A stretch of 64,000 nucleotides of DNA. It comes from Candidatus Multivoradales bacterium (GTDB lineage: Bacteria; Acidobacteriota; Thermoanaerobaculia; Multivoradales; J023). The stretch is from positions 3,488,001-3,552,000 of the forward strand of contig CBDFLE010000006.1 in NCBI GenBank assembly GCA_965248925.1, read 5' to 3'. Within the stretch, counting starts at the first letter, position 1. Each line of letters starts with the position of its first letter. Position numbers and translations under genes: made by a program. This document shows, in pieces, positions 7,401 through 32,000 of the stretch. Below the pieces are notes generated by a model. It made no database searches and was not told the DNA's origin. It was given only the letters and a program-made list of their open reading frames with translations.

Positions 7401-8768
7401 AGCTTCGACAATTTCGGCAACATCCAGCAGCTATCAACACCCGGCTTCGCGGCTCTCAATCTCAACCCCAGCGCCACCACCAACCGCCTCGGCCTCTCGG
7501 GCGCTCAGTACGACGCGGCCGGCAATCTGACCGACATCACCCTCGGCAGCGAGAGCTTCGACTACGCCTTCGACGGCGCCAACATGATGAAGCACCTGCG
7601 CTCGAACACCGATCAAGCGCGGGTCTTCATCTACAACGCCAGCGACGAGCGGATCCTCACCTTCGACTGCTTCGGCCCCGGCGCCACCAGCACTTGCACC
7701 ACCCAGCCCGCCAGCCTCACCTGGACCCTACGCGGTCTCGGCAACGAAGTCCTGCGAGTCTACGATCAGCCAGCTGGCGGCGCCTTCAGCTGGAGTCGAG
7801 ACTACGTCCATCGCGGCGGGCAGCCCCTCGCCACCATCGAGCCCGAGGGTAGCGGTGGCGAGATGACGTCGCATCTCCATCTTGATCACCTGGGCACACC
7901 CCGGCAGATCACCCGAGGGGGTCAGCAGGTGGCGTTGCACAACTACTTTCCCTTTGGTCAAGAGGCGACCAGCGCGGAGGCTGACGAGATCCAGCTGAAA
8001 TTCACCGGTCATGAGCGGGACAAGACCGGGACCGGGGCGAGGAGCGAGCTGGACTACATGCATGCGCGGCATTGCAGTCCGGTGGTGGGGCGGTTCTTGA
8101 GTGTGGACCCGGCGAAGTCCGCCAAGCCCAGCGCGCCGGGAAGCTGGAACCGCTATTCCTATGCGGGGAACAACCCGATCAACGAGATCGACCCCAATGG
8201 GCGAGAAAGCCGTGCGGCGATGGCTCTCGAACAAGATATACAGCGCTTGATGCGGGGCGAGATCACCCAGGAGCAGTACATTGAGAACATCAATGCTCGG
8301 GGAATGGGAGCACTGTTTGCTGCCAGCCTTCTCTCGCCAGTCGACGAGACGACTCTTGTTGTCGCTGTTACTCGAAAAGCACTTCCTAGTGTTGGGTCAA
8401 AGCTGTCTGCTGTCTTTGCTCGACTTGGTAAGGTCTTTCAACGGGGATCGCGCGGAGGAGCAAAGGGGGCAGCGAGCGTTGACGACCTGCTTCGGGCTGG
8501 CCAGCAACTGGATAGAAATGGACTTAGCAGAGCTGGGCGCTCTCTACAGAAGCACGGAGACAGAGCAGACAGCGTTTTTCCACGGTCAACGGGCAATGCA
8601 GCTGCAAGGAACGATCAAGGACAACAGATCCTTGAAGAGATCTTGAACAGCTCGAACCAGACTACTCGGGCAAATCGCCTCGGTGGACGGGATATTTTCG
8701 ATACTGCCAGTGGGCGCGGAGTACGCTTCGACGGAGATGGGCAGTTCATAGGATTCCTAGATCCATGA
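4401..8768 (+). CDS. Rhs/YD-repeat polymorphic toxin, main body, ending in tip A
   Basis: Many YD repeats (YDRLGRL, YDGLGR, YDGAGN); Rhs core DHLGTPR...YFPFG...KFTGHERD...LDYMHAR...GRFLSVDP...WNRYSY..NNPIN.IDPNG, followed by a variable C-terminal domain. Confidence 0.93.
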   Translation: MEDRFGNWINVRYANDGDWTLTDSQGRTHTVDFVGGRVATVRLEAFGSQSNSTFLFQYRTETLERQFGFRPGCVPIAEHTLTTQVLDRVVLPDGSFYEMDYLTVDNLLSGGLSKLRLPTGGAYGYDYQLFPFQTQLADLFHAPDWGTVARGVKSKHLFLDDGDTTPYATWSYTYDTANPQAPGDPLGHPCFHSMKVTDPLGFETVGYFSTVGANNRWSYGLPYTYCDPISGSFSEAGPFLSQELFDAGGVKLRSIFVEFDSDGRDAGNYNEKAHRLRYRKETFHDDGGKVREVTFSDFDGLGHFRTMTTGGSFGAADVRTSSTTYNANPDDSSIDPATDLVLPSHNARWILETWDEQSVSEGGTTEKAEFCFSSTTGFLERRRQLAGSSRQSRDVVSLLTSTDGFVTGERVYGGDTQNLGTGSLCSLGLSGPTYRTDHVYASGSLRKSTAVDCTGTAILTLADYDIDSDTGLVATSRDAAGLGTSFTYDRLGRLTGQRPAELGWTQWTYTLPTTANPSLAPKLTEQQCQPFQTSCSGTDLMSFREHRYDGLGRRLQETVRIPIANAGQTELWHRYTTWNPRHWKTDESVWTTASAAGESRRTTYLAYDRFGRPGRVKPPEQPATFFTYQGDRVQTRRFKVQLTSGQQDTYVTEIMDGQGRLAEVCEGSSAAWSGSCGGGGLLTRYSYDDGGRLTKVCQNLSGSTCGQTRLFSYDGRGFLLSETHPEIGPSGNGRIDYRFDAGGNATSKDLIGSTAFDLSFDFDAAGRLIRVLESSNGAGSTPRLQKQFRYARTNSGSDHRAGKLVQTVRHNWVDIQSPLAPEPGSLDVKLSESFRYTGRQGLMSEKQTRYQFFAGNYAFTTGFAFDTQGNLSQLDYPSCQHADGGCATNDPQRTVNFNYEKGMLRSVPGFANNLTYQSGGMLHQLAHSDGVVDSQEVSSLNGLARPHQLTTSAGWSSGNFAYDGAGNISAIGNLAYRYDRLGRLISGQTSVGATLFTQTASFDNFGNIQQLSTPGFAALNLNPSATTNRLGLSGAQYDAAGNLTDITLGSESFDYAFDGANMMKHLRSNTDQARVFIYNASDERILTFDCFGPGATSTCTTQPASLTWTLRGLGNEVLRVYDQPAGGAFSWSRDYVHRGGQPLATIEPEGSGGEMTSHLHLDHLGTPRQITRGGQQVALHNYFPFGQEATSAEADEIQLKFTGHERDKTGTGARSELDYMHARHCSPVVGRFLSVDPAKSAKPSAPGSWNRYSYAGNNPINEIDPNGRESRAAMALEQDIQRLMRGEITQEQYIENINARGMGALFAASLLSPVDETTLVVAVTRKALPSVGSKLSAVFARLGKVFQRGSRGGAKGAASVDDLLRAGQQLDRNGLSRAGRSLQKHGDRADSVFPRSTGNAAARNDQGQQILEEILNSSNQTTRANRLGGRDIFDTASGRGVRFDGDGQFIGFLDP
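7899..7926 (+). other. Putative attL junction: host arm CCCCGGCAGAT, core CACCCG, element arm AGGGGGTCAGC
   Basis: Identity with the three downstream tip copies starts exactly at TCACCCGAGG (7909); codon style shifts from C-rich to G-rich here. Confidence 0.7.
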
Positions 8769-9019
8769 AGCGGGATGAGTTCTCAGCTGGCCATTTCAGC
8801 GTGATGATTGCCAGCGATCTGGATCACGAGAAGGTTTACGCAGAGATCTACTGTGATGACAAGTTTGTGGCGCTCGTGAGCCAGGAGCATGGCCTTGAGC
8901 ACAAAATGTTAGAGGTGCCAGGGCCTGGGCTTGTGGAAGAACAAATCTCTCGGGAGGTGGATCTCAAGGGTTTTCAGCACGCTCTTGAGCTAGCCGCGAG
9001 AAAGCTGCACGGCGAGTAG
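8765..9019 (+). CDS. Putative immunity protein for tip A
   Basis: 84 aa acidic ORF overlapping the toxin stop codon (ATGA); the position is typical of rhs immunity genes. Confidence 0.75.
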   Translation: MKRDEFSAGHFSVMIASDLDHEKVYAEIYCDDKFVALVSQEHGLEHKMLEVPGPGLVEEQISREVDLKGFQHALELAARKLHGE

Positions 9020-9057
9020 GCCGCGTTGGCCAACCTTTGACAGTAGCTCGCCATCAT

Positions 9058-9084
9058 GAGTGCCCGGTGTCCCACCGGGCACTC
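9058..9084. terminator. Perfect 12-bp hairpin between the convergent immunity and XRE genes
   Basis: GAGTGCCCGGTG-TCC-CACCGGGCACTC; no clear U-tract. Confidence 0.5.
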
Positions 9085-9462
9085 TCACTGGTGGAGCACT
9101 TCTTCGATCTGGTGCTTCTTGATGTAGGCGTCGATAAGGGAGGTGACGACGTGGCGATCATCGTCGCTCATCCGCTCGACCGCTTCGAACTGGCGTAGCA
9201 ACTCCCGATCCCGCAAGGCAGCCCCACGGGCTGCATCCCCATCGAGATCATCCCGCAGTAGAAAATCGATCGAGACGTCGAGAACATCGGCGAGCCTGAC
9301 GGCAGTTTCGGCGTTGGGCATGGCTTGGCCAATCTCATACTTGCCTACATGGCGACCGTGGATGCCGACCCGTTTGCCGAACTCGTCCTGGGACCATCCG
9401 CGCTCTTTGCGCAGCTTGCGGAGCTTCTGGCCGAAGCTGGGGGCGTCTGTAGTCATCTCCAT
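9085..9462 (-). CDS. XRE-family HTH repressor, type 1
   Basis: FGQKLRKLRKERGWSQDEFGKRVGIHGRHVGKYEIG..MPNAET..RLADVLDVSIDFL. Confidence 0.9.
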   Translation of the reverse strand: MEMTTDAPSFGQKLRKLRKERGWSQDEFGKRVGIHGRHVGKYEIGQAMPNAETAVRLADVLDVSIDFLLRDDLDGDAARGAALRDRELLRQFEAVERMSDDDRHVVTSLIDAYIKKHQIEEVLHQ

Positions 9463-9551
9463 CCGTTGCCTCTCGCTATGAATCTCCGCAAATTCTACAG
9501 CGCAAGCACCTCGCCATCAAGGGAAATGGAGTCTCGGGGCAGAGTTCTTAC

Positions 9552-9581
9552 TTGTAAAACCACGTCTATGCGCTATATAAT
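9552..9581 (+). promoter_or_regulatory. Putative sigma70 promoter of the SymE-primase-integrase operon, unit 1
   Basis: TTGTAA-18 bp-TATAAT in the divergent intergenic region. Confidence 0.55.
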
Positions 9582-9667
9582 CGAGTCAATCGATGCGTAT
9601 GGTGCTCGCTATGAAAACGAGCCCATCAGCTACAACAGAAAGACAGAATCTTGCCGGAGGATCTCCA

Positions 9668-9964
9668 ATGACCGAGCACAAGCTAACGATCTCCGCCCTG
9701 TACCGCCCCGGCTGGCACGTCTTGCCCAGATCGGCACAGCTGCCATTGCTGCAAGTGGTCGGCCCATGGCTCCAGGACGCTGGCTTCTACCCCGGTGCGC
9801 GAGTGCGGATCGATGTGGTGGGTGACGGGCGTTTGGTGGTGACGCGGGTGGAAGAGGGCGAGGAGGAGAGGGAAATGCAGCCGGTGGTGTGGGTGCCGGC
9901 GGATCAGATCGGCCGGATTGATGAGGTCTCGGCAAGTCGCCTGGCAGGAGCAGCCTGTGTCTGA
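9668..9964 (+). CDS. SymE-like (AbrB-fold) protein 1, unit 1
   Basis: PLLQVVGPWLQDAGFYPGARVRIDV motif; GGAGG RBS before the ATG at 9668. Confidence 0.7.
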   Translation: MTEHKLTISALYRPGWHVLPRSAQLPLLQVVGPWLQDAGFYPGARVRIDVVGDGRLVVTRVEEGEEEREMQPVVWVPADQIGRIDEVSASRLAGAACV

Positions 9965-10181
9965 GTCGAGAGCTGAGCGGCATCTGACGATCTCTACCCT
10001 GCACGAGCCCCGCGCACCGCACTACATCAACGGTCCGTGCTCGGTGCGGCTTGTGCCGTTTGTGCGGATGCGGGGGGCTTGGCTGGAAGCAGCGGGGTTT
10101 CGCTGTGGGGAGCGGCTGCGGGTGGAGGTCGAGCAGGATCGTTTGGTGCTTACTCCGGTGGGATCGGAGGCGGCACGGTGA
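9957..10181 (+). CDS. SymE-family protein 2, unit 1
   Basis: VPFVRMRGAWLEAAGFRCGERLRVEVEQDRLVLT matches the SymE pattern; GTG start after GGAG, overlapping both neighbours. Confidence 0.75.
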   Translation: MSESRAERHLTISTLHEPRAPHYINGPCSVRLVPFVRMRGAWLEAAGFRCGERLRVEVEQDRLVLTPVGSEAAR

Positions 10182-13100
10182 GCAGGATTCCGGAAGCGGA
10201 AGTGGAGCGACTAAAGCGAGAAGTATCGGTGGAACGCCTGGTCCTGGCCCGCGGTGTAGAGCTGAAACGGCACGGGGCGGACCTGCTGGGGCTGTGTCCG
10301 TTTCACGACGACCACGAGCCGTCGCTGGTGATCTCGCCAAAGAAGAACCTGTGGCACTGCCTGGGCGCCTGCCAGGCGGGTGGCTCGGTGATCGATTGGG
10401 TGATGCGAGATCGCGGGGTGTCGTTTCGCCACGCGGTCGAGCTGCTGCGCTCGGATCTGCCGGCGGCGGCGGTCACTGAGGCGCGGCCTTCGGCGCCGGC
10501 TCTGCCTTCGCCGGTGGTGGCGGACGTCGAGGACGCGGAGTTGCTCGGCCAGGTCGTCGGCTACTACCACGAGGCTTTGAAGGAGGGCCCGGAGGCGCTG
10601 GCTTATCTGGAGAGCAGAGGGCTGAAGCACCCGGAGATGATCGAGCATTTCAGGCTTGGCTTCGCCAACCGGACGCTGGGCTATCGACTGCCATCGAAGC
10701 AGCTGAAGGCGGGTAAGGAGATGCGGGGTCGATTGCAGAAGCTCGGCGTGCTGCGCAAGTCGGGTCATGAGCACTTCAACGGCTCGATCGTCTTTCCGGT
10801 TTTCGATTCAACAGGCCAGGTGGTGGAGATCTACGGGCGCAAGATCACACTAAATCTTCGCAAGGGGACGCCCTTGCATCTCTATCTGCCGGGTCCACAT
10901 CGAGGGATCTTTAATGCGGAAGCTCTGGTGGCCTCGACCGAGATCATCCTCTGCGAGTCGCTGATCGACGCTCTGACTTTCTGGTGTGCGGGTTACCGTA
11001 ACGTCACCAGCGCCTACGGCATCCAGGGTTTCACCGCGGAGATGCTGGCAGCCTTCGGTGGCCACGGAGTCGAGCGGGTGCTGATCGCCTACGACCGTGA
11101 CGATGCCGGCGAGAAGGCCGCCGGGAAGCTGGCCGAGAAGCTGGTGGGTGCCGGGATCGACTGCTACCGAATCCAATTTCCGCGTGGCATGGATGCCAAC
11201 GAGTACGCGCTGAAGGTGACCCCGGCGGCGAAGTCGCTGGGGGTGGTGATCCGCAAAGCACAGTGGCTCGGCAAAGGCAAGCCGCCGGGCGTGAAACCGG
11301 GGTTTGGGCCAACAGCTGGCCTAATCGCGCCAACGGTACGGCCAAACACAGCCGCAGAGGCGGTAATGGCTCCACCAACAGAGCAGCTGACATCATCGAA
11401 TACCGCCGGAGAGGCGGTATTGGCACTGCCCGCCCCGGCCGAAGCCTCCCCACTGCCCGCACCGCCTCCGCCAGATATGCCGGCTGAGGTGCGCGACCAG
11501 GAGGTGGTCTTGTCGCTCGGCGATCGCCGCTACCGCATTCGCGGTCTGCCGAAGAATCTGGCCTACGACGTGCTCAAGGTCAACGTCCTGGCGTCGCGGG
11601 GCGACGCCTTCCACGTCGACACTTTCGATCTCTACGCGGCGCGGCCGCGGGCGGTGTTTCAGCGGGCGGCAGCCGCTGAGCTGGGGGTCGAGGAGCAGGT
11701 GGTCAAGAAGGATCTGGGCAAGGTGCTGCTGAAGCTCGAGGAGCTGCAGGACGAGCAGATCCGCTCAGCACTCGAGCCGCAGTCGACGGCGGTGGAGCTG
11801 TCAGAGGGAGAGAAGGAAGCGGCGCTTGAGCTGCTGCGCTCACCAGATCTCTTGGTGCGCATCCTCGCGGACTTCGAGCGCTGCGGGGTGGTGGGCGAGG
11901 AGGTCAACAAGCTGATGGGCTACCTGGCGTCGACCTCGCGTTTCCTGGAACGGCCGCTGGCGGTGGTGGTGCAGTCCAGCTCAGCGGCCGGTAAGTCGGC
12001 GCTGATGGAGGCGGTGCTGTCGCTGATGCCAGGTGAGCAGCAAGTGAAGTACTCGGCGATGACCGGGCAATCGCTGTTCTACATGGGCGAAACGGATCTG
12101 CAGCACAAGATCCTGGCGATCGTCGAGGAGGAGGGGGCCGAGCGGGCTAGCTACGCCTTGAAGCTGCTTCAGTCGGAGGGCGAGCTGACGATTGCCTCGA
12201 CCGGCAAGGATGCTTCAACGGGCAAGCTGGTGACGCACGAGTACCACGTCGAAGGGCCGGTGATGATCTTCTTGACGACCACGGCAATCGACATCGATGA
12301 AGAGCTTTTGAATCGCTGCTTGGTGCTCTCGGTGGACGAGGCGCGAGAGCAGACGCGGGCGATTCACCGGCTGCAGCGGCAGCGGCGGACGCTGGAGGGG
12401 CTACTCTCGCGCACCCGGCGCGACGGGGTGATGGCGCTGCACCAGAACGCGCAGCGGCTGCTGCGGCCGCTGGCGGTGGTCAATCCCTTTGCTCCGGAAC
12501 TTACCTTTCTCGATACGCAAATCCGCACCCGCCGGGACCACGAGAAGTACCTGACGCTGATCGACGTGATTGCTCTTTTGCATCAATACCAGCGAGAGGT
12601 GAAGCTGGCGGTGGTCGACGGGCGAGAGGTGGAGTACGTCGAAGTGGTGGCCACAGACATCGAGACAGCCAACCGCCTGGCGCACGAAGTCTTGGGGCGC
12701 TCGCTCGATGAGCTGCCGCCGCAGACGCGGCGCCTGCTGGGGCTGATCGACGAGATGGTCAGCGAAGCCTGTGAGGCGCTGGCGATGGATCGGCCGGACT
12801 ACCGTTTCAGCCGGCGGGCGGTGCGCGAGCACACCGGCTGGGGCAATACGCAGCTGAAGCTGCACCTACGCCGTCTTGAGGAGTTTGAGTATCTGCTGGT
12901 GCATCAGGGCGGGCGGGGGCAGAGCTTTGTCTACGAGCTGGTTTACGTGGCCAGCGACGAGCCGGAGCGGCCGCGACTGCCGGGGCTGATCGAGGTCGAA
13001 ACACTCAGGTACGACGAAAAGAAGTCGGGGTCTGAAGCTGAGAAGTCGGGGCCAAGTCGGCCCCAAGTCGGGGGGGTGTCGGGGGGTGGTCGGGGTGCAG

Positions 13101-13243
13101 TTTCCCAAGCAGAATCAACAACTTCGGCCGGAAATCGTGGAGTTTCGGCAAAAAACGCATATAAGGGGGTGCGAGAAAACGGCCCGTCATGTCGTAAATC
13201 TGGGCCTCGTACCGGCGGCTCGGCGGCGGTCGAGGGGGCCTGA
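10178..13243 (+). CDS. CHC2 zinc finger plus Toprim primase fused to a P-loop NTPase/helicase-like domain, unit 1
   Basis: CPFHDD...WHCLGAC zinc finger; CESLIDALT...YDRDDAG Toprim; Pro-rich linker; SSAAGKS Walker A and IVEEEG Walker B-like motif; GTGA overlap with the upstream stop and GGAGG RBS. Confidence 0.88.
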   Translation: MSRIPEAEVERLKREVSVERLVLARGVELKRHGADLLGLCPFHDDHEPSLVISPKKNLWHCLGACQAGGSVIDWVMRDRGVSFRHAVELLRSDLPAAAVTEARPSAPALPSPVVADVEDAELLGQVVGYYHEALKEGPEALAYLESRGLKHPEMIEHFRLGFANRTLGYRLPSKQLKAGKEMRGRLQKLGVLRKSGHEHFNGSIVFPVFDSTGQVVEIYGRKITLNLRKGTPLHLYLPGPHRGIFNAEALVASTEIILCESLIDALTFWCAGYRNVTSAYGIQGFTAEMLAAFGGHGVERVLIAYDRDDAGEKAAGKLAEKLVGAGIDCYRIQFPRGMDANEYALKVTPAAKSLGVVIRKAQWLGKGKPPGVKPGFGPTAGLIAPTVRPNTAAEAVMAPPTEQLTSSNTAGEAVLALPAPAEASPLPAPPPPDMPAEVRDQEVVLSLGDRRYRIRGLPKNLAYDVLKVNVLASRGDAFHVDTFDLYAARPRAVFQRAAAAELGVEEQVVKKDLGKVLLKLEELQDEQIRSALEPQSTAVELSEGEKEAALELLRSPDLLVRILADFERCGVVGEEVNKLMGYLASTSRFLERPLAVVVQSSSAAGKSALMEAVLSLMPGEQQVKYSAMTGQSLFYMGETDLQHKILAIVEEEGAERASYALKLLQSEGELTIASTGKDASTGKLVTHEYHVEGPVMIFLTTTAIDIDEELLNRCLVLSVDEAREQTRAIHRLQRQRRTLEGLLSRTRRDGVMALHQNAQRLLRPLAVVNPFAPELTFLDTQIRTRRDHEKYLTLIDVIALLHQYQREVKLAVVDGREVEYVEVVATDIETANRLAHEVLGRSLDELPPQTRRLLGLIDEMVSEACEALAMDRPDYRFSRRAVREHTGWGNTQLKLHLRRLEEFEYLLVHQGGRGQSFVYELVYVASDEPERPRLPGLIEVETLRYDEKKSGSEAEKSGPSRPQVGGVSGGGRGAVSQAESTTSAGNRGVSAKNAYKGVRENGPSCRKSGPRTGGSAAVEGA
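13022..13095 (+). repeat. Iteron-like GTCGG array inside the 3' end of the primase gene (also near 20890-20963 and 28605-28678)
   Basis: GTCGG at 13024, 13045, 13056, 13067, 13078 and 13089 (11-bp period); first four are AAGTCGG. Confidence 0.6.
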
Positions 13244-14316
13244 TGCCGCGCCGTGGCGAGCGCAAGATCCGCCTCTTGCCGGGCAATCCAACCGACCCTC
13301 GGGGCTTCGCGGTGATGGCGGGTCAGTACCTGGAGTGGATGGCGATCAAGAACTACTCTCCACGAACCGTTGAGAACCGGCATCTATACCTCTCGTTTCT
13401 CATCGCATGGTGTGAAGAGCGTGGGGTGTCGCGGCCGTCGGAAGTGACCAAGCCGATCCTGGAGCGCTACGCCAGGTGGCTCTACCACTACCGCAAGCCT
13501 GGGGACGGGCGGCCGCTGTCTTTCCGGGCTCAGCACTCGCGGCTGGTGCCGGTAAGGGCCTTCTTCAAATGGGCGGCTCGGGCCAACCACCTGCTCTACA
13601 ACCCGGCCTCGGAGCTGGAGCTACCGAAGCTGGAGCACCGGCTGCCGGCGGCGGTGCTGACCGCCTCTGAAGCCGACCAGGTGCTCAACCAGCCCGACAC
13701 CACGGAGCCGCTCGGGATGCGCGACCGAACAATCCTTGAAGTCTTCTACTCCACGGGCATGCGCCGGGCTGAGCTGATCGGCCTCGGCCGTTACGATCTC
13801 GACATCGAGCGCGGGACGGTGATGGTGCGCCAGGGCAAGGGTAGGAAAGATTGGATGATCCCGATCGGCGAGCGGGCGTTGGCCTGGATCGATCGCTACG
13901 TCACTGCGGTACGGCCGTCGCTGGTGGTCGAGCCGGACGGCGGGCCGCTCTTTCTCACCAACCAGGGGACGCCGTTTGCGCCGTCGCGAATGACTCAGCT
14001 GGTGCGCGGCTACGTGCTCGCCGCCGATCTCGGCAAGTCGGGCGCTTGCCATCTCTTCCGCCACACGATGGCGACGCTGATGCTCGAAGGTGGTGCGGAT
14101 ATCCGCTTCATTCAGCAGATGCTCGGCCATGCCAAGCTGGAGACGACGCAGATTTACACTCAGGTATCGATCCGCAAACTGAAGTCGATCCACTCGGCAA
14201 CCCATCCGGGCGCGAAGCTAGGGCGGCGGGTGGCACCGCCGACAGAAGAAGACGGCAGCGATGAAGTGACCGCCGAGGACTTACTCGATGTAGTCGAGAC
14301 CGAGGCGGAGGACTGA
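13243..14316 (+). CDS. Tyrosine recombinase (XerC/XerD-like integrase), unit 1
   Basis: Catalytic set intact: TGMRRAE (R), KGRK (K), HLFRH (H-x-x-R), LGH (H), TQIY (Y); TGATG coupling to the primase gene. Confidence 0.93.
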   Translation: MPRRGERKIRLLPGNPTDPRGFAVMAGQYLEWMAIKNYSPRTVENRHLYLSFLIAWCEERGVSRPSEVTKPILERYARWLYHYRKPGDGRPLSFRAQHSRLVPVRAFFKWAARANHLLYNPASELELPKLEHRLPAAVLTASEADQVLNQPDTTEPLGMRDRTILEVFYSTGMRRAELIGLGRYDLDIERGTVMVRQGKGRKDWMIPIGERALAWIDRYVTAVRPSLVVEPDGGPLFLTNQGTPFAPSRMTQLVRGYVLAADLGKSGACHLFRHTMATLMLEGGADIRFIQQMLGHAKLETTQIYTQVSIRKLKSIHSATHPGAKLGRRVAPPTEEDGSDEVTAEDLLDVVETEAED

Positions 14317-14520
14317 CCCCCGCCCGAAGCGGTCCGGGTCTGCGGGTCCCGCGCTGCGGCCGGCTGCGCCGTCCTCCGTTCGCGGGCCACGCAGCCCTCG
14401 GCAGTATTTTTTCGTCACCCCAGCCCGCCCCGGCCCGAGCATCTGCGATCCACCACCTGAGCCCTCCGATCACCGGCCCGGCGCGGGGCTTCAAGTAGTC
14501 CAAGAGAAGACTCTTCGAAA

Positions 14521-14761
14521 GCTCACCCCAAGCTCCGCCGGGGCGTGTGTCCCTCCGGTCGCTGCGCTCCCTCCGGGCACGGGCCAGCCGCTCCGCAAGC
14601 CGCGCGCCACCTGGGTCCCTCCTCGGACCTCCCAGGTGTCACGCGGCTTGCATGGGTCGCTGTCCGATAGTGCGCGCCCTATCCGACCTGGCCCTCACAC
14701 GCCCCGGCTCCGGGCCTACGGCCTTTCCATAACGCGTGCATTATGGAAACTTGGGGTGAGC
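14521..14761. other. Nested inverted-repeat (branched hairpin) module downstream of the integrase
   Basis: Nested pairs GCTCACCCCAAG/CTTGGGGTGAGC, CCGGGGCGTGTG/CACACGCCCCGG, CAAGCCGCG/CGCGGCTTG, CACCTGGG/CCCAGGTG, TTTCCATAA/TTATGGAAA. Confidence 0.65.
14722..14751 (+). other. cer/dif-like XerCD site, unit 1
   Basis: CCTTTCCATAA-CGCGTGCA-TTATGGAAACT; the right arm matches the ColE1 cer XerD arm TTATGGTAAAT at 9/11; 8-bp spacer as in cer. Confidence 0.55.
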
Positions 14762-17330: not shown

Positions 17331-17428
17331 TGATCGTCGATTTCCTGGCCTCTTGGGCCGAATTTCCACTAATTCTAAGCGCATACGGTGATTTGCGCAA
17401 GTAATTCGGGCGAGAACGTACGCTCTGC

Positions 17429-22478: not shown

Positions 22479-22508
22479 CCTTTCCATAACGCGTGCATTA
22501 TGGAAACT
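22479..22508 (+). other. cer/dif-like XerCD site, unit 2
   Basis: Identical to 14722..14751. Confidence 0.55.
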
Positions 22509-24040: not shown

Positions 24041-24050
24041 GAGTATACGG

Positions 24051-24404: not shown

Positions 24405-24426
24405 TTGTCGTGCCGTCGGGGTGTGA

Positions 24427-24715: not shown

Positions 24716-25087
24716 TCAGGGGGCAGCGGTGGCTGATTCCTGGGTGACGAGGTCAACGAACTTCTTCTTGGTCAGCAGGCCATCGATGATCTTGATGACG
24801 GCAGCCTTTTCCTCGGGGTCGAGGCGTTCGAGCAGCTCCATGCGCTGGGCGAGAGGCTGATCTTCGAGCCGGACGGGTCGAAACTCTCCCTCTTCTTCAT
24901 TCAGCAGGAAGTCGGTCGTCACCTCGAACTCTGAGGCGAGCTTGCGCAGCAGGTCAATGGACGGCTGGTAGCGGCCGTTCTCAAGCCGGCTGATGTGGCC
25001 AGTGCTAACCCCGAGGCGCTTGCCGAGTTCGCCCTGGGCCCACCTGTGCTCAGCGCGGAGCTTTCGGATCTTCTCTTGAAGGGTCAT
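24716..25087 (-). CDS. XRE-family HTH repressor, type 2, unit 3
   Basis: Same protein as 16959..17330. Confidence 0.9.
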   Translation of the reverse strand: MTLQEKIRKLRAEHRWAQGELGKRLGVSTGHISRLENGRYQPSIDLLRKLASEFEVTTDFLLNEEEGEFRPVRLEDQPLAQRMELLERLDPEEKAAVIKIIDGLLTKKKFVDLVTQESATAAP

Positions 25088-25295
25088 TGATCGTCGATTT
25101 CCTGGCCTCTTGGGCCGAATTTCCACTAATTCTAAGCGCATACGGTGATTTGCGCAAGTAATTCGGGCGAGAACGTACGCTCTGCTTGACGATGATAGGC
25201 GCATGCGTTATTATTTGTGCATGAGAGCAGCAAGGTGCCGTGGTCGCAACCGTTAACTGCTCCAAGCGTGATGCGAAAACTGGAGGGAAATCTCA

Positions 25296-25592
25296 ATGAC
25301 CGAGCACAAGCTAACAATCTCCGCCCTGTACCGCCCCGGCTGGCACGTCTTGCCCAGATCGGCACGGCTGCCATTGCTGCAGATTGCAGGTCCGTGGCTC
25401 CAGGACGCTGGCTTCTACCCTGGTGCGCGAGTGCGGGTCGACGTGGTGGGCGAAGGGCGCCTGGTGGTGACGCGGGTGGAAGAAGGCGAGGAAGAGAGGG
25501 AAATGCAGCCGGTGGTGTGGGTGCCAGCGGATCAGATCGGCCGGATTGATGAGGTCTCGGCAAGTCGCCTGGCAGGAGCAGCCTGTGTCTGA
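25296..25592 (+). CDS. SymE-like protein 1, unit 3
   Basis: Identical to the unit 2 copy. Confidence 0.7.
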   Translation: MTEHKLTISALYRPGWHVLPRSARLPLLQIAGPWLQDAGFYPGARVRVDVVGEGRLVVTRVEEGEEEREMQPVVWVPADQIGRIDEVSASRLAGAACV

Positions 25593-25809
25593 GTCGAGAG
25601 CTGAGCGGCATCTGACGATCTCTACCCTGCACGAGCCCCGCGCACCGCACTACATCAACGGTCCGTGCTCGGTGCGGCTTGTGCCGTTTGTGCGGATGCG
25701 GGGGGCTTGGCTGGAAGCAGCGGGGTTTCGCTGTGGGGAGCGGCTGCGGGTGGAGGTCGAGCAGGATCGTTTGGTGCTTACTCCGGTGGGATCGGAGGCG
25801 GCACGGTGA
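25585..25809 (+). CDS. SymE-family protein 2, unit 3
   Basis: Identical to the other copies. Confidence 0.75.
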   Translation: MSESRAERHLTISTLHEPRAPHYINGPCSVRLVPFVRMRGAWLEAAGFRCGERLRVEVEQDRLVLTPVGSEAAR

Positions 25810-28800
25810 GCAGGATTCCGGAAGCGGAAGTGGAGCGACTAAAGCGAGAAGTATCGGTGGAACGCCTGGTCCTGGCCCGCGGTGTAGAGCTGAAACGGCA
25901 CGGGGCGGACCTGCTGGGGCTGTGTCCGTTTCACGACGACCACGAGCCGTCGCTGGTGATCTCGCCAAAGAAGAACCTGTGGCACTGCCTGGGCGCCTGC
26001 CAGGCGGGTGGCTCGGTGATCGATTGGGTGATGCGAGATCGCGGGGTGTCGTTTCGCCACGCGGTCGAGCTGCTGCGCTCGGATCTGCCGGCGGCGGCGG
26101 TCACTGAGGCGCGGCCTTCGGCGCCGGCTCTGCCTTCGCCGGTGGTGGCGGACGTCGAGGACGCGGAGCTACTCGGCCAGGTCGTCGGCTACTACCACGA
26201 GGCTTTGAAGGACAGCCCGGAAGCGCTGACGTACCTGGAGAGTCGGGGCTTGAAGCACCCGGAGATGATCGAGCATTTCCGGCTTGGCTTCGCCAACCGG
26301 ACGCTGGGCTATCGTCTGCCATCGAAGCAGCTGAAGGCGGGCAAGGAGATCCGGGGTCGATTGCAGAAGCTCGGGGTGCTGCGCAAGTCGGGTCATGAGC
26401 ACTTCAATGGCTCGATCGTCTTTCCGGTCTTCGCGGGTGGCCAGGTGGTGGAGATCTACGGGCGCAAGATCACACTGAATCTTCGCAAGGGGACGCCCTT
26501 GCATCTCTATCTGCCGGGTCCGCATCGAGGGATCTTCAATGCGGAAGCTCTGGTGGCCTCGACCGAGATCATCCTCTGCGAGTCGCTGATCGACGCCCTG
26601 ACCTTCTGGTGTGCGGGCTACCGCAACGTCACCAGCGCCTACGGCATCCAGGGTTTCACCGAGGAGATGCTGGCAGCCTTCGGTGGCCATGGAGTCGAGC
26701 GGGTGCTGATTGCCTACGACCGGGACGATGCCGGCGAGAAGGCCGCCGGGAAGCTGGCCGAGAAGCTGGTGGGTGCCGGGATCGACTGCTACAGAATCCA
26801 CTTTCCGCGCGGCATGGACGCCAACGAGTACGCGCTGAAGGTGACCCCGGCGGCGAAGTCGCTGGGGGTGGTGATCCGCACAGCACAGTGGCTCGGGAAA
26901 GGCAAGGTGCCCGAGGTGAAACCGGGGTTCGAACCCATAGTGGGCGCATTGGCACCACAGGTAGAGCAACCGACACCGCCGAATACACCCGGAGAGGGTG
27001 TATTGGCGCCACCCGCGCCGGCCAAAGCCTCGCCGCTGCCGGCTCCACCACCGCCGGATGTGCCGGCTGAGGTGCGTGAGCAGGAGGTAGTGCTGTCGCT
27101 CGGCGATCGCCGCTACCGGGTCCGAGGTCTGCCGAAGAATCTGGCCTACGACGTGCTCAAGGTCAACGTCCTGGCGTCGCGGGGCGACGCCTTCCACGTC
27201 GACACTTTCGATCTCTACGCGGCGCGGCCGCGGGCGGTGTTTCAGCGGGCGGCAGCCGCTGAGCTGGGGGTCGAGGAGCAGGTGGTCAAGAAGGATCTGG
27301 GCAAGGTGCTGCTGAAGCTCGAGGAGCTGCAGGACGAGCAGATCCGCTCGGCACTCGAGCCGCAGTCGACGGCGGTGGAGCTGTCAGAGGGAGAGAAGGA
27401 AGCGGCGCTTGAGCTGCTGCGCTCACCAGATCTCTTGGCGCGAATCCTGGAGGACTTCGAGCGCTGCGGGGTGGTGGGTGAGGAGGTCAACAAACTCATG
27501 GGCTATATGGCGGCCACCTCGCGTTTCCTAGAACGGCCCCTAGCGGTGGTGGTGCAATCCAGCTCGGCGGCCGGCAAGTCGGCGCTGATGGAGGCGGTGC
27601 TGGCACTGATGCCAGGTGAGCAGCAAGTGAAGTACTCGGCGATGACCGGGCAATCGCTGTTCTACATGGGCGAGACGAACCTACAGCACAAGATCTTGGC
27701 GATCGTCGAAGAGGAAGGCGCCGAGCGAGCGAGCTACGCCTTGAAACTGCTTCAGTCAGAAGGAGAGCTGACCATCGCGTCGACCGGCAAGGATGCTTCA
27801 ACGGGCAAGCTGGTGACGCACGAGTACCACGTCGAAGGGCCGGTGATGATCTTCTTGACGACCACGGCGATCGACATCGATGAAGAACTGCTGAATCGGT
27901 GTCTGGTGCTGTCGGTAGACGAGGCGCGGGAGCAGACTCGGGCGATTCACCGGCTGCAGCGAGAGCGGCGAACGCTCCAGGGGCTGTTGTCGCGCACCCG
28001 ACGCGACGGGGTGATGGCATTGCACCAGAACGCGCAGCGGCTGCTGCGGCCGCTGGCGGTGGTCAATCCCTTCGCTCCCGAGCTGACCTTTCTCGATACG
28101 CAGATCAGAACCCGTCGAGACCACGAGAAGTACCTGACCCTGATCGACGTGATTGCTCTTTTGCATCAATACCAGCGAGAGGTGAAGCTGGCGGTGGTCG
28201 ACGGGCGAGAGGTGGAGTACGTCGAAGTGGTGGCCACAGACATCGAGACAGCCAACCGCCTGGCGCACGAAGTCTTGGGGCGCTCGCTCGATGAGCTGCC
28301 GCCGCAGACGCGGCGCCTGCTGGGGCTGATCGACGAGATGGTCAGCGAAGCCTGTGAGGCGCTGGCGATGGATCGGCCGGACTACCGTTTCAGCCGGCGG
28401 GCGGTGCGCGAGCACACCGGCTGGGGCAATACGCAGCTGAAGCTGCACCTACGCCGTCTTGAGGAGTTTGAGTATCTGCTGGTGCATCAGGGCGGGCGGG
28501 GGCAGAGCTTTGTCTACGAGCTGGTTTACGTGGCCAGCGACGAGCCGGAGCGGCCGCGACTGCCGGGGCTGATCGAGGTCGAAACACTCAGGTACGACGA
28601 AAAGAAGTCGGGGTCTGAAGCTGAGAAGTCGGGGCCAAGTCGGCCCCAAGTCGGGGGGGTGTCGGGGGGTGGTCGGGGTGCAGTTTCCCAAGCAGAATCA
28701 ACGACTTCGGCCGGAAATCGTGGGGTTTCGGCAAAAAACGCATATAAGGGGGTGCGAGAAAACGGCCCGTCATGTCGTAAATCTGGGCGTCGTACCGGCG

Positions 28801-28826
28801 GCTCGGCGGCGGTCGAGGGGGCCTGA
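25806..28826 (+). CDS. CHC2/Toprim primase-NTPase, unit 3
   Basis: Same motifs; shorter and different Pro-rich linker. Confidence 0.88.
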   Translation: MSRIPEAEVERLKREVSVERLVLARGVELKRHGADLLGLCPFHDDHEPSLVISPKKNLWHCLGACQAGGSVIDWVMRDRGVSFRHAVELLRSDLPAAAVTEARPSAPALPSPVVADVEDAELLGQVVGYYHEALKDSPEALTYLESRGLKHPEMIEHFRLGFANRTLGYRLPSKQLKAGKEIRGRLQKLGVLRKSGHEHFNGSIVFPVFAGGQVVEIYGRKITLNLRKGTPLHLYLPGPHRGIFNAEALVASTEIILCESLIDALTFWCAGYRNVTSAYGIQGFTEEMLAAFGGHGVERVLIAYDRDDAGEKAAGKLAEKLVGAGIDCYRIHFPRGMDANEYALKVTPAAKSLGVVIRTAQWLGKGKVPEVKPGFEPIVGALAPQVEQPTPPNTPGEGVLAPPAPAKASPLPAPPPPDVPAEVREQEVVLSLGDRRYRVRGLPKNLAYDVLKVNVLASRGDAFHVDTFDLYAARPRAVFQRAAAAELGVEEQVVKKDLGKVLLKLEELQDEQIRSALEPQSTAVELSEGEKEAALELLRSPDLLARILEDFERCGVVGEEVNKLMGYMAATSRFLERPLAVVVQSSSAAGKSALMEAVLALMPGEQQVKYSAMTGQSLFYMGETNLQHKILAIVEEEGAERASYALKLLQSEGELTIASTGKDASTGKLVTHEYHVEGPVMIFLTTTAIDIDEELLNRCLVLSVDEAREQTRAIHRLQRERRTLQGLLSRTRRDGVMALHQNAQRLLRPLAVVNPFAPELTFLDTQIRTRRDHEKYLTLIDVIALLHQYQREVKLAVVDGREVEYVEVVATDIETANRLAHEVLGRSLDELPPQTRRLLGLIDEMVSEACEALAMDRPDYRFSRRAVREHTGWGNTQLKLHLRRLEEFEYLLVHQGGRGQSFVYELVYVASDEPERPRLPGLIEVETLRYDEKKSGSEAEKSGPSRPQVGGVSGGGRGAVSQAESTTSAGNRGVSAKNAYKGVRENGPSCRKSGRRTGGSAAVEGA

Positions 28827-29902
28827 TGCCGCGCCGTGGCGAGCGCAAGATCCGCCTCTTGCCGGGCAATCCAACCGACCCTCGGGGCTTCGCGGTGATG
28901 GCGGGTCAGTACCTGGAGTGGATGGCGATCAAGAACTACTCTCCACGAACCGTTGAGAACCGGCATCTATACCTCTCGTTTCTCATCGCATGGTGTGAAG
29001 AGCGTGGGGTGTCGCGGCCGTCGGAAGTGACCAAGCCGATCCTGGAGCGCTACGCCAGGTGGCTCTACCACTACCGCAAGCCTGGGGACGGGCGGCCGCT
29101 GTCTTTCCGGGCGCAGCACTCGCGGCTGGTGCCGGTGCGGGCTTTCTTCAAGTGGGCGACTCGGGCCAACCACCTGCTCTACAACCCGGCCTCGGAGCTG
29201 GAGCTGCCGAAGCTGGAGCACCGGTTGCCGGCGGCGGTGCTGACCGCCTCGGAAGCCGACCAGGTGCTCAACCAGCCCGACACCGCCGACCCACTCGGGA
29301 TGCGCGACCGGACGATCCTTGAAGTCTTCTACTCGACCGGCATGCGCCGGGCTGAGCTGATCGGCCTCGGCCGTTACGATCTCGACATCGAACGCGGAAC
29401 GGTGATGGTGCGCCAGGGCAAGGGGCGGAAAGACTGGATGATCCCGATCGGCGAGCGGGCGCTGGCCTGGATCGATCGCTACGTCACTGAGGTACGGCCG
29501 TCGCTGATGGTCGAGCCGGACGGCGGGACGCTCTTTCTCACCAACCAGGGGACGCCGTTTGCTCCGTCGCGAATGAGTCAGCTGGTGCGCGGCTACGTGC
29601 TCGCCGCCGATCTCGGCAAGTCGGGCGCTTGCCATCTCTTCCGCCACACGATGGCGACGCTGATGCTCGAAGGTGGTGCGGATATCCGCTTCATTCAGCA
29701 GATGCTCGGCCATGCCAAGCTGGAGACGACGCAGATTTACACTCAGGTATCGATCCGCAAACTGAAGTCGATCCACTCGGCAACCCATCCGGGCGCGAAG
29801 CTAGGGCGGCGGGTGGCACCGCCAGCGGAAGAAGCGAAAGACGGCGGCGAAGTGGCGGCCGAAGATCTGCTCGACACTATGGAGGCCGAAGCGGAGGACT
29901 GA
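28826..29902 (+). CDS. Tyrosine recombinase, unit 3
   Basis: Catalytic residues intact; different acidic tail. Confidence 0.93.
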   Translation: MPRRGERKIRLLPGNPTDPRGFAVMAGQYLEWMAIKNYSPRTVENRHLYLSFLIAWCEERGVSRPSEVTKPILERYARWLYHYRKPGDGRPLSFRAQHSRLVPVRAFFKWATRANHLLYNPASELELPKLEHRLPAAVLTASEADQVLNQPDTADPLGMRDRTILEVFYSTGMRRAELIGLGRYDLDIERGTVMVRQGKGRKDWMIPIGERALAWIDRYVTEVRPSLMVEPDGGTLFLTNQGTPFAPSRMSQLVRGYVLAADLGKSGACHLFRHTMATLMLEGGADIRFIQQMLGHAKLETTQIYTQVSIRKLKSIHSATHPGAKLGRRVAPPAEEAKDGGEVAAEDLLDTMEAEAED

Positions 29903-30576
29903 CCCCCTCCCCCCACCCGAAGCGGTCCGGGTCTGCGCGTCCCGCGTTGCGGCCGGCTGCGCCGTCCTCCGTTCGCGGGCCACGCAGCCCTCGGCAGTAT
30001 TTTTTCGTCACCCCAGCCCGCCCCGGCCCGAGCATCTGCGATCCACCACCTGAGCCCTCCGATCACCGGCCCGGCGCGGGGCTTCAAGTAGTCCAAGAGA
30101 AGACTCTTCGAAAGCTCACCCCAAGCTCCGCGAGCCTGCGAAGGTCAGCGGCTTCGGAAGCACGCCCCGCTCTTGGCCTCCTTGCCGAGATCCACCGACT
30201 TGCACTGCGACGGCTCGGCCCGGCCCCGTCCGCCCCCTCAAGGGGGCTCCCCATCCTCCTCCCAAGACCCGCCCTGCGTCGTGGCCTCCGTACCCTGCGC
30301 GCGGCGCCCTGCGGTCGCCGTGCTCGGCTCCGGCCCCGCCGCCACCACGCCCCCAACGTGCAGATTGGTTTGGCGGCTGCCCTCTGTGCCGCCGGCACCA
30401 AACTGCCGGAAAGACCCGCGCTCGCTCCGACGACCAGCCCAACGAAAACGACCTAAGAAAACACCCACTGCCCGAAGAAAGCGGCCTAAGAAAACCGCAT
30501 CCCGCCTCCGCACCAACCACCCTTCCTCCTTTAGCCGCTGTCTTCGAGCGCCACCCGCGGCGTAGAATGGCCCGGC

Positions 30577-31638
30577 ATGAGGCAGGCAGCTAAAGGAAGA
30601 AGCACTTGGACGATGGCGCTCGGGCTGGTCGTCGCGCTCCTGGCGGTGACGATGCCGGCAACAGCGATCGCGCCGATCTCCGAGTCGAGCTACGCCGAAA
30701 CTCGCCTCTGGACCTTCGAGCACCAAGACCCCGCCGGCAGTAGGGCCGAGCGAGGCTTAAGTAGAACAGGCATAGAGGGTTACCAGCTCTCAAGCTGGAA
30801 ACCGCGTCGGGCTGTCCCCTTCACCCGAGGCGGACAGCAGGTGGCGTTGCACGGCTACTTCCCGTTTGGTCAGGAGGCGACCAGCGCCGCACAAGATGAG
30901 GTTGTGCTGAAGTTCACCGGGCACGAGCGAGACAAGACCGGGACCGGGGTGAGGAGCGAGCTGGACTACATGCATGCGCGGCATTGCAGTCCGGTGGTGG
31001 GGCGGTTCTTGAGTGTGGATCCATCTCTGGGTAGCCGGTCCTCACCACAGAGTTGGAATCGCTTCTCTTACGTCAGCAACAGTCCAATCAACCAGGTAGA
31101 CCCGGACGGAAGGCTTGGGTTTCTGGTAACTGCATTTCTTGGCGGAGTCGTAGATGTTGGGATTCAAATTGCGAGCAACGCGCTTTCAGGGGAAGAGCTC
31201 ACAACAGGCGTAGCCGGGGCTTTCGTCACCGGAGCAGTGGCTGGTGCCACAGGTCTTGGGCTATTGAAGGTGGCTGGTAGGGGAGCGAAGCTCGTAGGAG
31301 CCGTTAGAAATGCAAAGAAACTGAAGAAGTCAACTGCTGCTGCTGGCGCACCAAGAGCGGGCGCAAGGGGAACAAGGGTTGTTGATGACGCCATTTCAGG
31401 CTTGCGTGCTGGGCGAAGTCCCGGTGTCAGAGTGGTTGAGTCGGCTGATGACTTGGAGGGCTTGTTTGGCCGCCTCAGTCGCGGCGGCACATCAGTCGAA
31501 GGCACAAAGTTCCCAGGCCAGCTTGTGAAGCTGCCCGATGGTACGACGGTCGGATTGCGCGCCGGCTCGAAGTCCGGGGGGCCAACCATCGACATCAAGC
31601 TGCCTGATGGAACCTTGCGCAAGGTCCATGTCCAATAA
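30577..31638 (+). CDS. Leader::Rhs tip C fusion (terminal displaced tip)
   Basis: Same leader and pre-toxin linker as tips B/B', but an unrelated toxin domain ending LPDGTTVGLRAGSKSGGPTIDIKLPDGTLRKVHVQ. Confidence 0.8.
   Translation: MRQAAKGRSTWTMALGLVVALLAVTMPATAIAPISESSYAETRLWTFEHQDPAGSRAERGLSRTGIEGYQLSSWKPRRAVPFTRGGQQVALHGYFPFGQEATSAAQDEVVLKFTGHERDKTGTGVRSELDYMHARHCSPVVGRFLSVDPSLGSRSSPQSWNRFSYVSNSPINQVDPDGRLGFLVTAFLGGVVDVGIQIASNALSGEELTTGVAGAFVTGAVAGATGLGLLKVAGRGAKLVGAVRNAKKLKKSTAAAGAPRAGARGTRVVDDAISGLRAGRSPGVRVVESADDLEGLFGRLSRGGTSVEGTKFPGQLVKLPDGTTVGLRAGSKSGGPTIDIKLPDGTLRKVHVQ
30811..30838 (+). other. Putative attR junction (11-6-11)
   Basis: GCTGTCCCCTT-CACCCG-AGGCGGACAGC; variant right arm, still a 9/11 inverted match. 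Confidence 0.72.
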
Positions 31639-32000
31639 TGAGCTTTCGAAACTGCGTCGATGATGTCTTGAAACGTGGCTTGGATGACTGGATCCAAGCC
31701 GCTGAGATCGCTTCGATAGCCCGGACCGCCGGCAAAGCAACGAGCGAAGACGGAGTCCGTGACCTCTCACTCCGGATTTTTCGGGAGCTACTCGGGCGAA
31801 ACTTGATGGATGTCGGGATGGTTACGGAGACAGGATTCACGGCTTGGGAGATTCCTGTCGATCAGGCCCTTCAGCGGATCGAAAGTGATTGGCGAGCCTT
31901 GCCCAAGGGGCCGGATCTCGGCGAGATTTGCTGGCTCAACCTCACCGAGGAAGGGTCCGTGCAGGCGGACGAGCTTTGGTCGAAGAGCAGGTCCTCTTGA
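31638..32000 (+). CDS. Putative immunity protein for tip C
   Basis: 120 aa, TAATG coupling to the toxin stop codon. Confidence 0.75.
   Translation: MSFRNCVDDVLKRGLDDWIQAAEIASIARTAGKATSEDGVRDLSLRIFRELLGRNLMDVGMVTETGFTAWEIPVDQALQRIESDWRALPKGPDLGEICWLNLTEEGSVQADELWSKSRSS

Follow-up and report, generated by a model that had tools for sequence, protein, structure and literature searches.

The window analysed here, a stretch of 64,000 nucleotides (nt) from a Candidatus Multivoradales bacterium of the phylum Acidobacteriota (GenBank assembly GCA_965248925.1, contig CBDFLE010000006.1, positions 3,488,001 to 3,552,000), carries a gene for a polymorphic toxin of the Rhs type, behind which three units of ~7.5 kb are stacked in tandem. 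Each unit has a backbone with genes for an XRE-type regulator, two SymE-like proteins, a primase and a tyrosine integrase, and the three backbones of the window separate four alternative C-terminal ends of the Rhs protein (tips A, B, B′, and C), each of which is followed by small open reading frames (ORFs) of its own. Comparison with further copies in the same genome and with relatives in other lineages suggests that the ~7.5-kb unit is a mobile element that swaps toxin tips by site-specific integration, a reading to which we assign a probability of roughly 0.78.

Four toxin tips with one starting point

All four tips begin at the same nucleotide of the rhs core, as the first-pass annotation of this DNA had claimed. 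The 10-mer TCACCCGAGG occurs exactly four times in the window, at 7909, 15451, 23208, and 30821, always on the + strand; 0.21 copies are expected by chance, and four copies were reached in none of the shuffles (0/100). In the alignment of module A with modules B, B′, and C, the onset of homology falls exactly at 7909. To the left of this point, module A adjoins the rhs body (...CCCCGGCAGA/TCACCCG, the slash marking the junction); the body sequence running into the module reads ...CACCCCGGCAGA, and the body ends in ...CCGGCAGA. Modules B, B′, and C are instead preceded by a common backbone end, ...GGGCTGTCCCCT/TCACCCG, which is 100% identical over 300 nt in all three (sequence common to their upstream side, ...CGTCGGGCTGTCCCCT). 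The putative left attachment site, attL (7899–7926, + strand), joins the rhs body at 7908/7909 to the spacer TCACCCG (7909–7915), which is followed by the right arm AGGGGGTCAGC.

Tip A (7909–8768, + strand) consists of the last ~92 Rhs core codons up to DPNGR, a pre-toxin region of ~85 amino acids (aa) and a candidate toxin of ~100 aa, and its immunity candidate of 84 aa (8765–9019, + strand), so named by position, overlaps the rhs stop with its start. The other tips had been taken for bare modules; however, each lies within a longer ORF, the first 82 codons of which belong to the backbone and encode a Sec signal-peptide-like leader, MRQAAKGRSTWTMALGLVVALLAVTMPATAIA, in frame with the tip. All of these ORFs are on the + strand: the leader–tip B ORF spans 15207–16283, with the attR1 junction at 15450/15451 and immunity candidates of 119 and 103 aa at 16288–16951; the leader–tip B′ ORF spans 22964–24040 in a block of 22964–24708, with attR2 at 23207/23208 and immunity candidates at 24051–24404 and 24427–24708; and the leader–tip C ORF spans 30577–31638 in a block of 30577–32000, with attR3 at 30820/30821 and an immunity candidate at 31638–32000. 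The leader is also conserved in G016, a same-family genome from a different genus, and in two diverged elements of the present genome (C4b and C6c), which are described below. One or two small ORFs lie behind every tip, and the earlier claim of an immunity-like ORF per tip therefore holds by position. Beyond the core end, B′ and B are 96% identical. The Rhs core model TIGR03696 (Rhs_assc_core) scores 58.1 bits on the tip, with a cut-off of 32.5, and its match begins ~11 residues past the junction; on the tip B ORF it covers residues 94–178. Where a core-end motif of the DPxGL type was sought, the sequence here is DPNGR or DPDGR, followed by variable ends and small downstream ORFs that match no toxin or immunity family.

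Tip C is probably the native end of this rhs locus. The tip and its immunity candidate have a 77% identical counterpart pair on an element-free rhs gene at C6:1648182–1649077 (contig and position), and tip C looks native because the gene downstream of it (32194–32739) recurs at C6:1750120 and C6:4014908, each a few kb from an element-free rhs locus. This downstream gene is a 181-aa ORF with no Pfam match, of which the genome holds five more copies at 82–88% DNA identity.

The host rhs gene itself (3687–8768, + strand; its start is uncertain between 3639, 3657, and 3687) encodes a Sec-type signal-peptide-like N-terminus, YD repeats (RHS_repeat PF05593, 7e-18), the Rhs core end and tip A. Its full-length paralogues measure 1668–1716 aa and share a signal-peptide-like N-terminus, MRIRPL..LPLTAQ, and proteins of this type are probably exported by Sec; a profile search of the window proteins found no genes of a type VI secretion system (T6SS) near the gene. 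Directly upstream, at 337–3492, lies a gene for an efflux transporter of the AcrB/AcrD/AcrF family (7e-171).

The backbone of unit 1 opens with an XRE/Cro-type helix-turn-helix (HTH) regulator (9085–9462, − strand; HTH_3, 2.2e-16; PHROG transcription regulators), which is divergent from the replication genes. Two paralogous SymE-like genes are present per unit: in unit 1, gene 1, of the AbrB fold (9593–9964, + strand), matches SymE_toxin at 1.3e-5 and 7.8e-6 (~26 bits, under the Pfam cut-off), and gene 2 (9918–10181, + strand) matches SymE_toxin (PF08845) at 4.1e-12, with 46.4 bits against a cut-off of 29. They are followed by a DnaG-type primase (10037–13243, + strand; the conserved start is probably near 10172), with matches to Zn_ribbon_DnaG (3.5e-20), Toprim_2 (8.8e-18), and TIGR01391 (8.5e-47). 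The families PF01807, PF08275, and PF13155 all score above their cut-offs, so that zinc ribbon, core and Toprim are present, and a C-terminal part of ~650 aa matches no known family. On this protein the bacterial dnaG equivalog model reaches 159.9 bits, below its cut-off of 283.6, and it is thus not the chromosomal primase. The first-pass annotation had called it a primase-NTPase; the series of XRE, SymE-like, primase and tyrosine integrase genes stands, with one of the SymE-like genes under the cut-off, whereas the NTPase part is not supported, as the primase has no Walker A motif (G/AxxxxGK[ST]) and no significant P-loop domain, the sole match being AAA_29 at an E-value of 0.076.

The tyrosine integrase of the XerC-subfamily type (13243–14316, + strand) begins with a start codon overlapping the primase stop. 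It matches PF00589 at 3.7e-36 (124.9 bits against a cut-off of 27.1) and the XerC subfamily model NF002331 with 427.7 bits (cut-off 371), and stays under the cut-offs of the chromosomal XerC and XerD equivalogs (220.9 vs 335 and 215.6 vs 330, respectively). The residues R174, K199, H270, R273, H296, and Y305 are invariant in an alignment of six sequences of relatives; the catalytic residues of tyrosine recombinases are R-K-H-R-H/W-Y. Membership among the integrons was considered and rejected, since the integron-integrase model TIGR02249 scores 100.9 bits against a cut-off of 265 and every unit has its own integrase. Behind the integrase lies a conserved backbone ORF of 195 aa, ORF195 (14636–15223, + strand), to which the copies in the genome's two diverged elements are 62% and 43% identical. 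Neither ORF195 nor the C-terminal part of the primase has a significant match in Pfam, NCBIfam or PHROGs. In plasmids of Lonsdalea and Pseudomonas aeruginosa, a toxin-antitoxin pair of the RelE/ParE type follows the integrase at the place of ORF195.

The backbone of unit 2 (16959–22980) repeats this order, with XRE at 16959–17447 (− strand), the SymE-like genes at 17539–17835 and 17789–18052, the primase at 17908–21111, the integrase at 21111–22184 (98% identical to that of unit 1) and ORF195 at 22393–22980. That of unit 3 (24716–30576) has XRE at 24716–25204 (− strand), the SymE-like genes at 25296–25592 and 25546–25809, the primase at 25665–28826, the integrase at 28826–29902 (96% identical), and a 5′-shortened ORF195: when 29910–30380 of unit 3 is compared with 14317–15017 of unit 1, ~225 nt of units 1 and 2 are missing between repeats D11 and D9, and the start of ORF195 is lost. 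PHROG matches of the element are confined to the primase, the integrase and the regulator. No capsid-related gene that would indicate a phage satellite (P4-like elements or phage-inducible chromosomal islands) was seen, the small ORFs being without assignment.

The junction in this genome and in other lineages

The genome (7.98 Mb in six contigs) holds 14 copies of the integrase at an identity of at least 81%. Twelve of them (12/14) lie in four arrays on four different rhs genes, all full-length or nearly so, namely the array of the window (three units) and those at C5:984654 (seven units), C6:1342651 (one), and C4:78756 (one); the other two belong to diverged single elements, a 92% paralogue (C4b, at C4:257254) and an 81% paralogue (C6c). 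All backbone–tip junctions (12/12) fall on one and the same base, and the four body–tip junctions are in register with them. While the backbones are 86–100% identical, the 16 tips of the arrays fall into 11 toxin types, each tip consisting of the last ~92 Rhs core codons, one of two pre-toxin regions of ~85 aa and a variable end of ~90–100 aa. Another 11 copies of this rhs core region are free of the element. In C6c, the junction lies inside the rhs body, and ~430 codons of body plus core and toxin are displaced and stand in frame with a leader. The same genome also contains a classical orphan array (C6:2444213–2456684) of seven rhs core ends with longer core fragments and no backbone, so that both kinds of array occur side by side.

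The junction of the attP type, GCTGTCCCCT-TCACCCG-AGGGGGTCAGC, is an imperfect palindrome with inverted arms around a 7-nt spacer, and homology to the host gene starts at the spacer. The corresponding junctions read TCCCCT-TTCGCCG-AGGGGGG in C4b and TTCCCCT-GTCCCA-AGGGGAA in G016; read by eye, the arms CCCCT and AGGGG are kept around the spacers TCACCCG, TTCGCCG, and GTCCCA. A metagenome-assembled genome (MAG) of a deltaproteobacterium, in which the integrase is 64% identical, retains the left arm as GTTCCCCT next to the spacer TGCCTCA. Conserved arms with changing spacers are characteristic of the core sites of tyrosine recombinases, and the junction looks like such a core.

Four lineages outside this genome allow the shared stretch to be delimited. 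In G016, where the integrase is 80% identical, four tandem units follow a gene for a 3747-aa Rhs-like protein, and the junction lies ~180 residues past the Rhs core end; the last junction has 19 nt in common with the neighbouring tip, after which an unrelated native end of 10 codons follows (..VPRGIPEASY and a stop). The deltaproteobacterial MAG has three units with three different small tips, and a 10-nt core, TGCCTCA[A/G]AG, is common to them and the host rhs. Sphingobium scionense DSM 19371 carries two identical units after a 1479-aa Rhs protein, bounded by an 11-nt repeat, GCCGCAAAAGA, and Allorhodopirellula solitaria CA85 two identical units placed 146 codons before the end of a 4073-aa protein, with a shared core of ~13 nt. 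Queries with the Rhs body and the Rhs core end found nothing in this last protein, the native tip of which, on our reading of the sequence, may contain a Hint-like motif. In Sphingobium, Allorhodopirellula, and the MAG, the array closes with a distinct, unrelated tip. In all four lineages (4/4), the tip is read in frame with an ORF beginning in the backbone, and this ORF has a signal-peptide-like start in three of them (3/4). The first-pass annotation had named the DHLGTPRQIT-RGGQQ codons as the specific target; this must be given up, as the junction elsewhere falls at different positions of rhs and also in toxin genes of other kinds.

An integrase scan with one genome per species returned at least 538 relatives. 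Among the best 75 of these at least 538 (55–70% identity), almost all loci also have the primase and many the XRE gene, and they span Acidobacteriota, Myxococcota, Actinomycetota, Planctomycetota, Verrucomicrobiota, Alpha-, Beta-, and Gammaproteobacteria (Pseudomonadota), and Dormibacteraeota. Repeated units were present in all 15 loci checked (15/15), several of which have two or more complete units. With a home-made profile, the Rhs core end was detected within 3 kb downstream for 14 of the 78 integrases that could be assessed, and for 16 of 52 in the cargo window upstream; both counts are underestimates, since the profile overlooks junctions past the core end, such as those of G016 and Sphingobium. 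Use of the longest ORF downstream of the integrase as a tip finder was dropped, because high-GC DNA yields spurious ORFs. The full-length primase was found in 35 plasmid records (E-value of 1e-60 or better), and none of the phage records matching it covers 80% or more, only the N-terminal third being matched.

In Escherichia coli, the element occurs in 56 of 5426 complete genomes, always in the chromosome and at a median of four places, which bears out the earlier statement that similar cassettes lie beside rhs genes in other bacteria. E. coli EC77 has four to five units after a VgrG-DcrB-Rhs gene adjoining pptA, a locus we take to be the RhsE region. Its junction falls at the DPIGL codons, with ...GGTAACG/GACCCGATAGGGCTG in rhs and ...GTCCCGAT/GACCCGATAGGGCTG behind each backbone, and the tip starts in E. 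coli are annotated as broken RHS pseudogenes. When E. coli genomes were searched with the last EC77 tip, no clean empty site was found, and the search led to the rhs locus flanked by ybfD-ybgA. At this locus, E. coli GPEC673 has SymE-family genes beside orphan tips, with no primase or XerC; these SymE genes may be relics of decayed elements in an ordinary E. coli rhs orphan array. The megaplasmid of Ralstonia solanacearum Po82 carries the element after the gene for a 1735-aa Rhs protein, with a repeat of 1.09 kb of the 3′ body of rhs behind it at 94.9% identity. On the P. aeruginosa plasmid pPA1609-475, it follows tpsA2 (CdiA-like), with a 927-nt repeat starting 416 nt before the tpsA2 stop.

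Two circular records correspond to whole units. Plasmid unnamed1 of Lonsdalea populi N-5-1 (11,289 bp) consists of two units, the tips of which begin with ..DPIG..NYGYVHNP..WVDPFGL and end in HNH and non-specific endonuclease toxins; the record also encodes an NTF2-fold immunity protein, SymE, an HTH protein, primase, XerC, and DinJ-RelE. Plasmid unnamed3 of Shigella flexneri SWHIN_104 (8,758 bp) is colinear with one EC77 unit (98.2% over 8657 nt) and has one attP-type junction. A contig of 8659 nt from a Kangiellaceae MAG begins and ends with the same 91 nt and is marked k=91 in its name; it may represent either one unit assembled as a circle or a tandem array that has collapsed.

A proposed mechanism and its rivals

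We propose that the circular form of the element carries, in this order, the attP core, a tip, the immunity gene(s), the divergent XRE gene, the two SymE/AbrB-like genes, the primase, the integrase, ORF195, the leader and the core. The integrase would recombine the core of the circle with an identical short stretch within the 3′ portion of a gene for a polymorphic toxin; in this lineage, the core would be CCCCT, the 7-nt spacer TCACCCG, and AGGGG. A single crossover would give the resident delivery body a new tip, fused in frame, along with the immunity gene of that tip, and the same crossover would move the former tip behind the element, where it would be fused to the leader ORF; both effects would follow from one crossover because the tip sits just downstream of it. 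Since a crossover at one core has a single topological outcome, it would give the arrangement seen in every array. Repeated integrations would stack the units, and recombination of neighbouring cores would excise one unit and return the previous tip to the body. The circle is suggested to replicate through the primase, with the divergent XRE protein as a repressor switch, and the SymE/AbrB-like pair and ORF195 may act in directionality or regulation; the element is probably both integrative and self-replicating. The integrase is presumed to be catalytically active, the small ORFs to confer immunity and the tips to be toxic. As the native last tip would never be captured by the site-specific route, new cargo would have to enter the elements by other recombination. 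A circle with its attP before a tip and immunity cargo, and an old tip shunted downstream, had already been postulated by the first-pass annotation, and the comparative evidence (the 12 junctions, the core, the short homology and the plasmid records) supports it. The same annotation read the array as a record in which C is oldest and A newest; C does look native and is probably the oldest, but the order of the units is not a safe chronology because of adjacent duplicate units and a tract that points to gene conversion.

Several observations weigh against site-specific integration of a mobile circle or limit the evidence for it. No excisionase, transfer or packaging genes were recognised in the Pfam, NCBIfam, and PHROG scans, and profile searches of the same collections gave no family for the window's toxin and immunity ORFs. 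The host-side left arm bears no likeness to the left arm of the element. A universal core was rejected: CCCCT-N6/7-AGGGG was found downstream of only 4 of the 89 assessable integrases outside this genome, all four in G016, so that the core is lineage-specific and is pinned down only where both junctions are readable. The circular records of Lonsdalea and Shigella fit excised circles, and could also be assembler products of tandem repeats. For the present organism, neither the circle joint (15450>7909) nor the empty-site joint (7908>15451) is listed for four sequencing runs of one study, which cover the stretch only as short Logan contigs ending at repeat borders, e.g., 15460; the sole joint in them that goes back (17000>9666) is the repeat of the next unit. 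An orthologous empty site was sought in the 40 nearest genomes, where none is comparable, the DNA match being only 64–79%. Additionally, while tip A is fused to the YD-repeat body, as had been claimed, the rhs gene of the window is interrupted by an in-frame TGA at 4386–4388 (GDL-stop-RLTRMEDRF), where the 98.5% identical C5 paralogue has TGG. The TGA reflects a sequencing error or a nonsense mutation of recent date; a genuine TGA would leave the newest tip unconnected to the export signal.

Further adverse observations speak for the alternative that we rank as the main rival and consider unlikely, namely RecA-dependent homologous insertion of the circle through its rhs fragment, as in the C-terminal displacement model of 2009, with the integrase only resolving multimers or excising units. 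Tip and target in this lineage share 202 nt at 83–100% identity, which is sufficient for RecA, and the repeat of 1.09 kb in Ralstonia offers still more. To the right of the presumed crossover, the attL of the one-unit array at C6:1342651 still has bases of the host type (positions 5, 8, 11, and 20), a pattern that a homologous crossover or later gene conversion fits better than a clean exchange in the 7-nt spacer. Moreover, two arrays are 100% identical over a tract of ~5.2 kb spanning attL (window ~7200–12424; C5 ~985360–980139), against a difference of 1–4% in the rhs bodies upstream of it; recent gene conversion or homologous exchange thus moves parts of arrays here, and homologous insertion probably also contributes in this genome. 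However, G016, the MAG, Sphingobium, and Allorhodopirellula share only 10–19 nt between element and target, which argues against long homology as a requirement for insertion, and homologous insertion accounts poorly for a junction at the same base in every one of the copies here, and for conserved inverted arms with varying spacers at that junction.

Site-specific integration has also to be set against readings in which the units do not travel or the tips are not what is selected. That the accumulated immunity genes are the selected benefit, as in polyimmunity loci or acquired-defence islands, with tip fusion incidental and the new toxin undeployed, is improbable. Small ORFs at the immunity position in every unit, the stop codon in the window rhs and the XerC/D genes noted beside polyimmunity loci (PMC3482391) agree with it; however, the tips are long open frames, in frame with the body or with a conserved leader, in the five lineages translated (C6c counted with this genome), the other three element-bearing rhs genes of this genome are open along their whole length, and polyimmunity loci are defined in that source as being without intervening toxin cassettes. 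We consider it very improbable that an old immobile insertion was multiplied in place by tandem segmental duplication and unequal crossing-over, its tips diverging later. Near-identical neighbouring units would be expected from such a history, and they exist, in B and B′ (96%), in three duplicate pairs of the C5 array and in the 100% identical pairs of G016, Sphingobium, and Allorhodopirellula; yet 11 unrelated toxin types stand behind near-identical backbones, the insertions lie in four rhs paralogues while 11 related core copies are element-free, and the same architecture recurs with different targets in many phyla. Least probable of all is an assembly artefact: although 7.5-kb units of 86–100% identity are difficult to assemble and the public runs exist only as short contigs that break at repeats, the units of the window differ in tips, in indels and at 4–14% of backbone positions, the genome is in only six contigs, and the same architecture is found in independent complete genomes.

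Whether the elements form one phylum-spanning class of replicative integrative elements, with the attachment site inside polymorphic-toxin genes (Rhs exported by Sec or T6SS, CdiA/TpsA, giant Hint-type proteins), appears to us evenly balanced. If they do, they would be the long-sought vehicle for new tips and immunity genes, with many classical orphan arrays as the footprints left by them; a reversible, last-in-first-out switch of the deployed toxin would result from integration and excision, and the signal-peptide leader of the element would let a tip be made and exported unjoined to the body, in several lineages.

Relation to known systems

The origin of new tips with matching immunity in Rhs, contact-dependent inhibition (CDI), and other polymorphic toxins has so far been explained only by a hypothetical circle and homologous recombination. 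An element with its own integrase, primase, regulator and short core before the tip would supply the missing vehicle and would explain why old tips accumulate downstream as orphans, and it may explain the diversification of these weapons. Our literature search, which lay mostly outside subscription journals and covered papers without their supplements (the gene-neighbourhood file of PMC3482391 could bear on the question), yielded no description of an integrase-bearing element that swaps the tips of Rhs or other polymorphic toxins. Carriers of arrays that are culturable and harmless include Sphingobium scionense DSM 19371, Allorhodopirellula solitaria CA85, and natural E. coli isolates. Annotation is affected as well, as the integrase is named XerC by the standard model, SymE is read as part of a toxin-antitoxin module and tip starts are taken for RHS pseudogenes. 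In addition, a short in-frame attachment site for exchangeable protein ends may interest builders of genetic tools.

The element is a combination of known kinds, an integrative element and Rhs tip displacement. Integrators of tRNA genes, and e14 or phage 21 in icd, target the 3′ end of a gene and bring along a substitute for it; as here, the crossover of a tyrosine integrase lies at the upstream edge of the duplicated 3′ end, and the gene stays intact. They restore the same product, whereas here a functional toxin end is replaced and a matching immunity gene is added. Tycheposons and similar small replicative integrative elements combine a tyrosine recombinase with a primase-type replication gene, and resemble the present units in carrying variable cargo at one end and in stacking in tandem at one attachment site; their targets, however, are tRNA genes and their cargo is metabolic or of other kinds, and we know of no element of this type that completes a host gene with its cargo. 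Integrons likewise capture and stack promoterless cassettes site-specifically in a fixed expression context, the newest nearest the promoter, but do so with one integrase and attI/attC sites, whereas every unit here is a complete element with an integrase far under the integron-integrase cut-offs. Among systems of defence, the recombinase-associated acquired interbacterial defence (rAID) islands of Bacteroides carry XerC/D-like recombinases; like polyimmunity loci, they pair a single recombinase with immunity genes that have no toxin cassettes among them.

The published accounts of polymorphic toxins touch on single parts of this arrangement. SymE genes beside Rhs or T6SS toxin genes are read as toxin-antitoxin modules in PMC7764402 and PMC3942780. 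Zhang et al. 2012 (PMC3482391) describe the replacement of tips by toxin-immunity cassettes through recombination and, in the part of the text available, mention XerC/D only beside polyimmunity loci. These loci resemble the present arrays in linking a Xer-type recombinase to arrays of toxin-immunity conflict genes, but they have one recombinase and immunity genes with no toxin cassettes (PMC3482391), whereas each unit here has an integrase, a primase and an in-frame tip. The closest precedent is that of Jackson et al. 2009 (PMC2935791), who put forward C-terminal displacement through an episomal circle and homologous recombination as hypothetical, and state that no integrase was then known to accompany Rhs. 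Their model shares with ours a circle that carries a core fragment, a tip and its neighbours, a single crossover, and an old tip that becomes a downstream orphan. Unlike it, the present system comprises a defined element with integrase, primase, regulator and short core, which also has targets other than Rhs.

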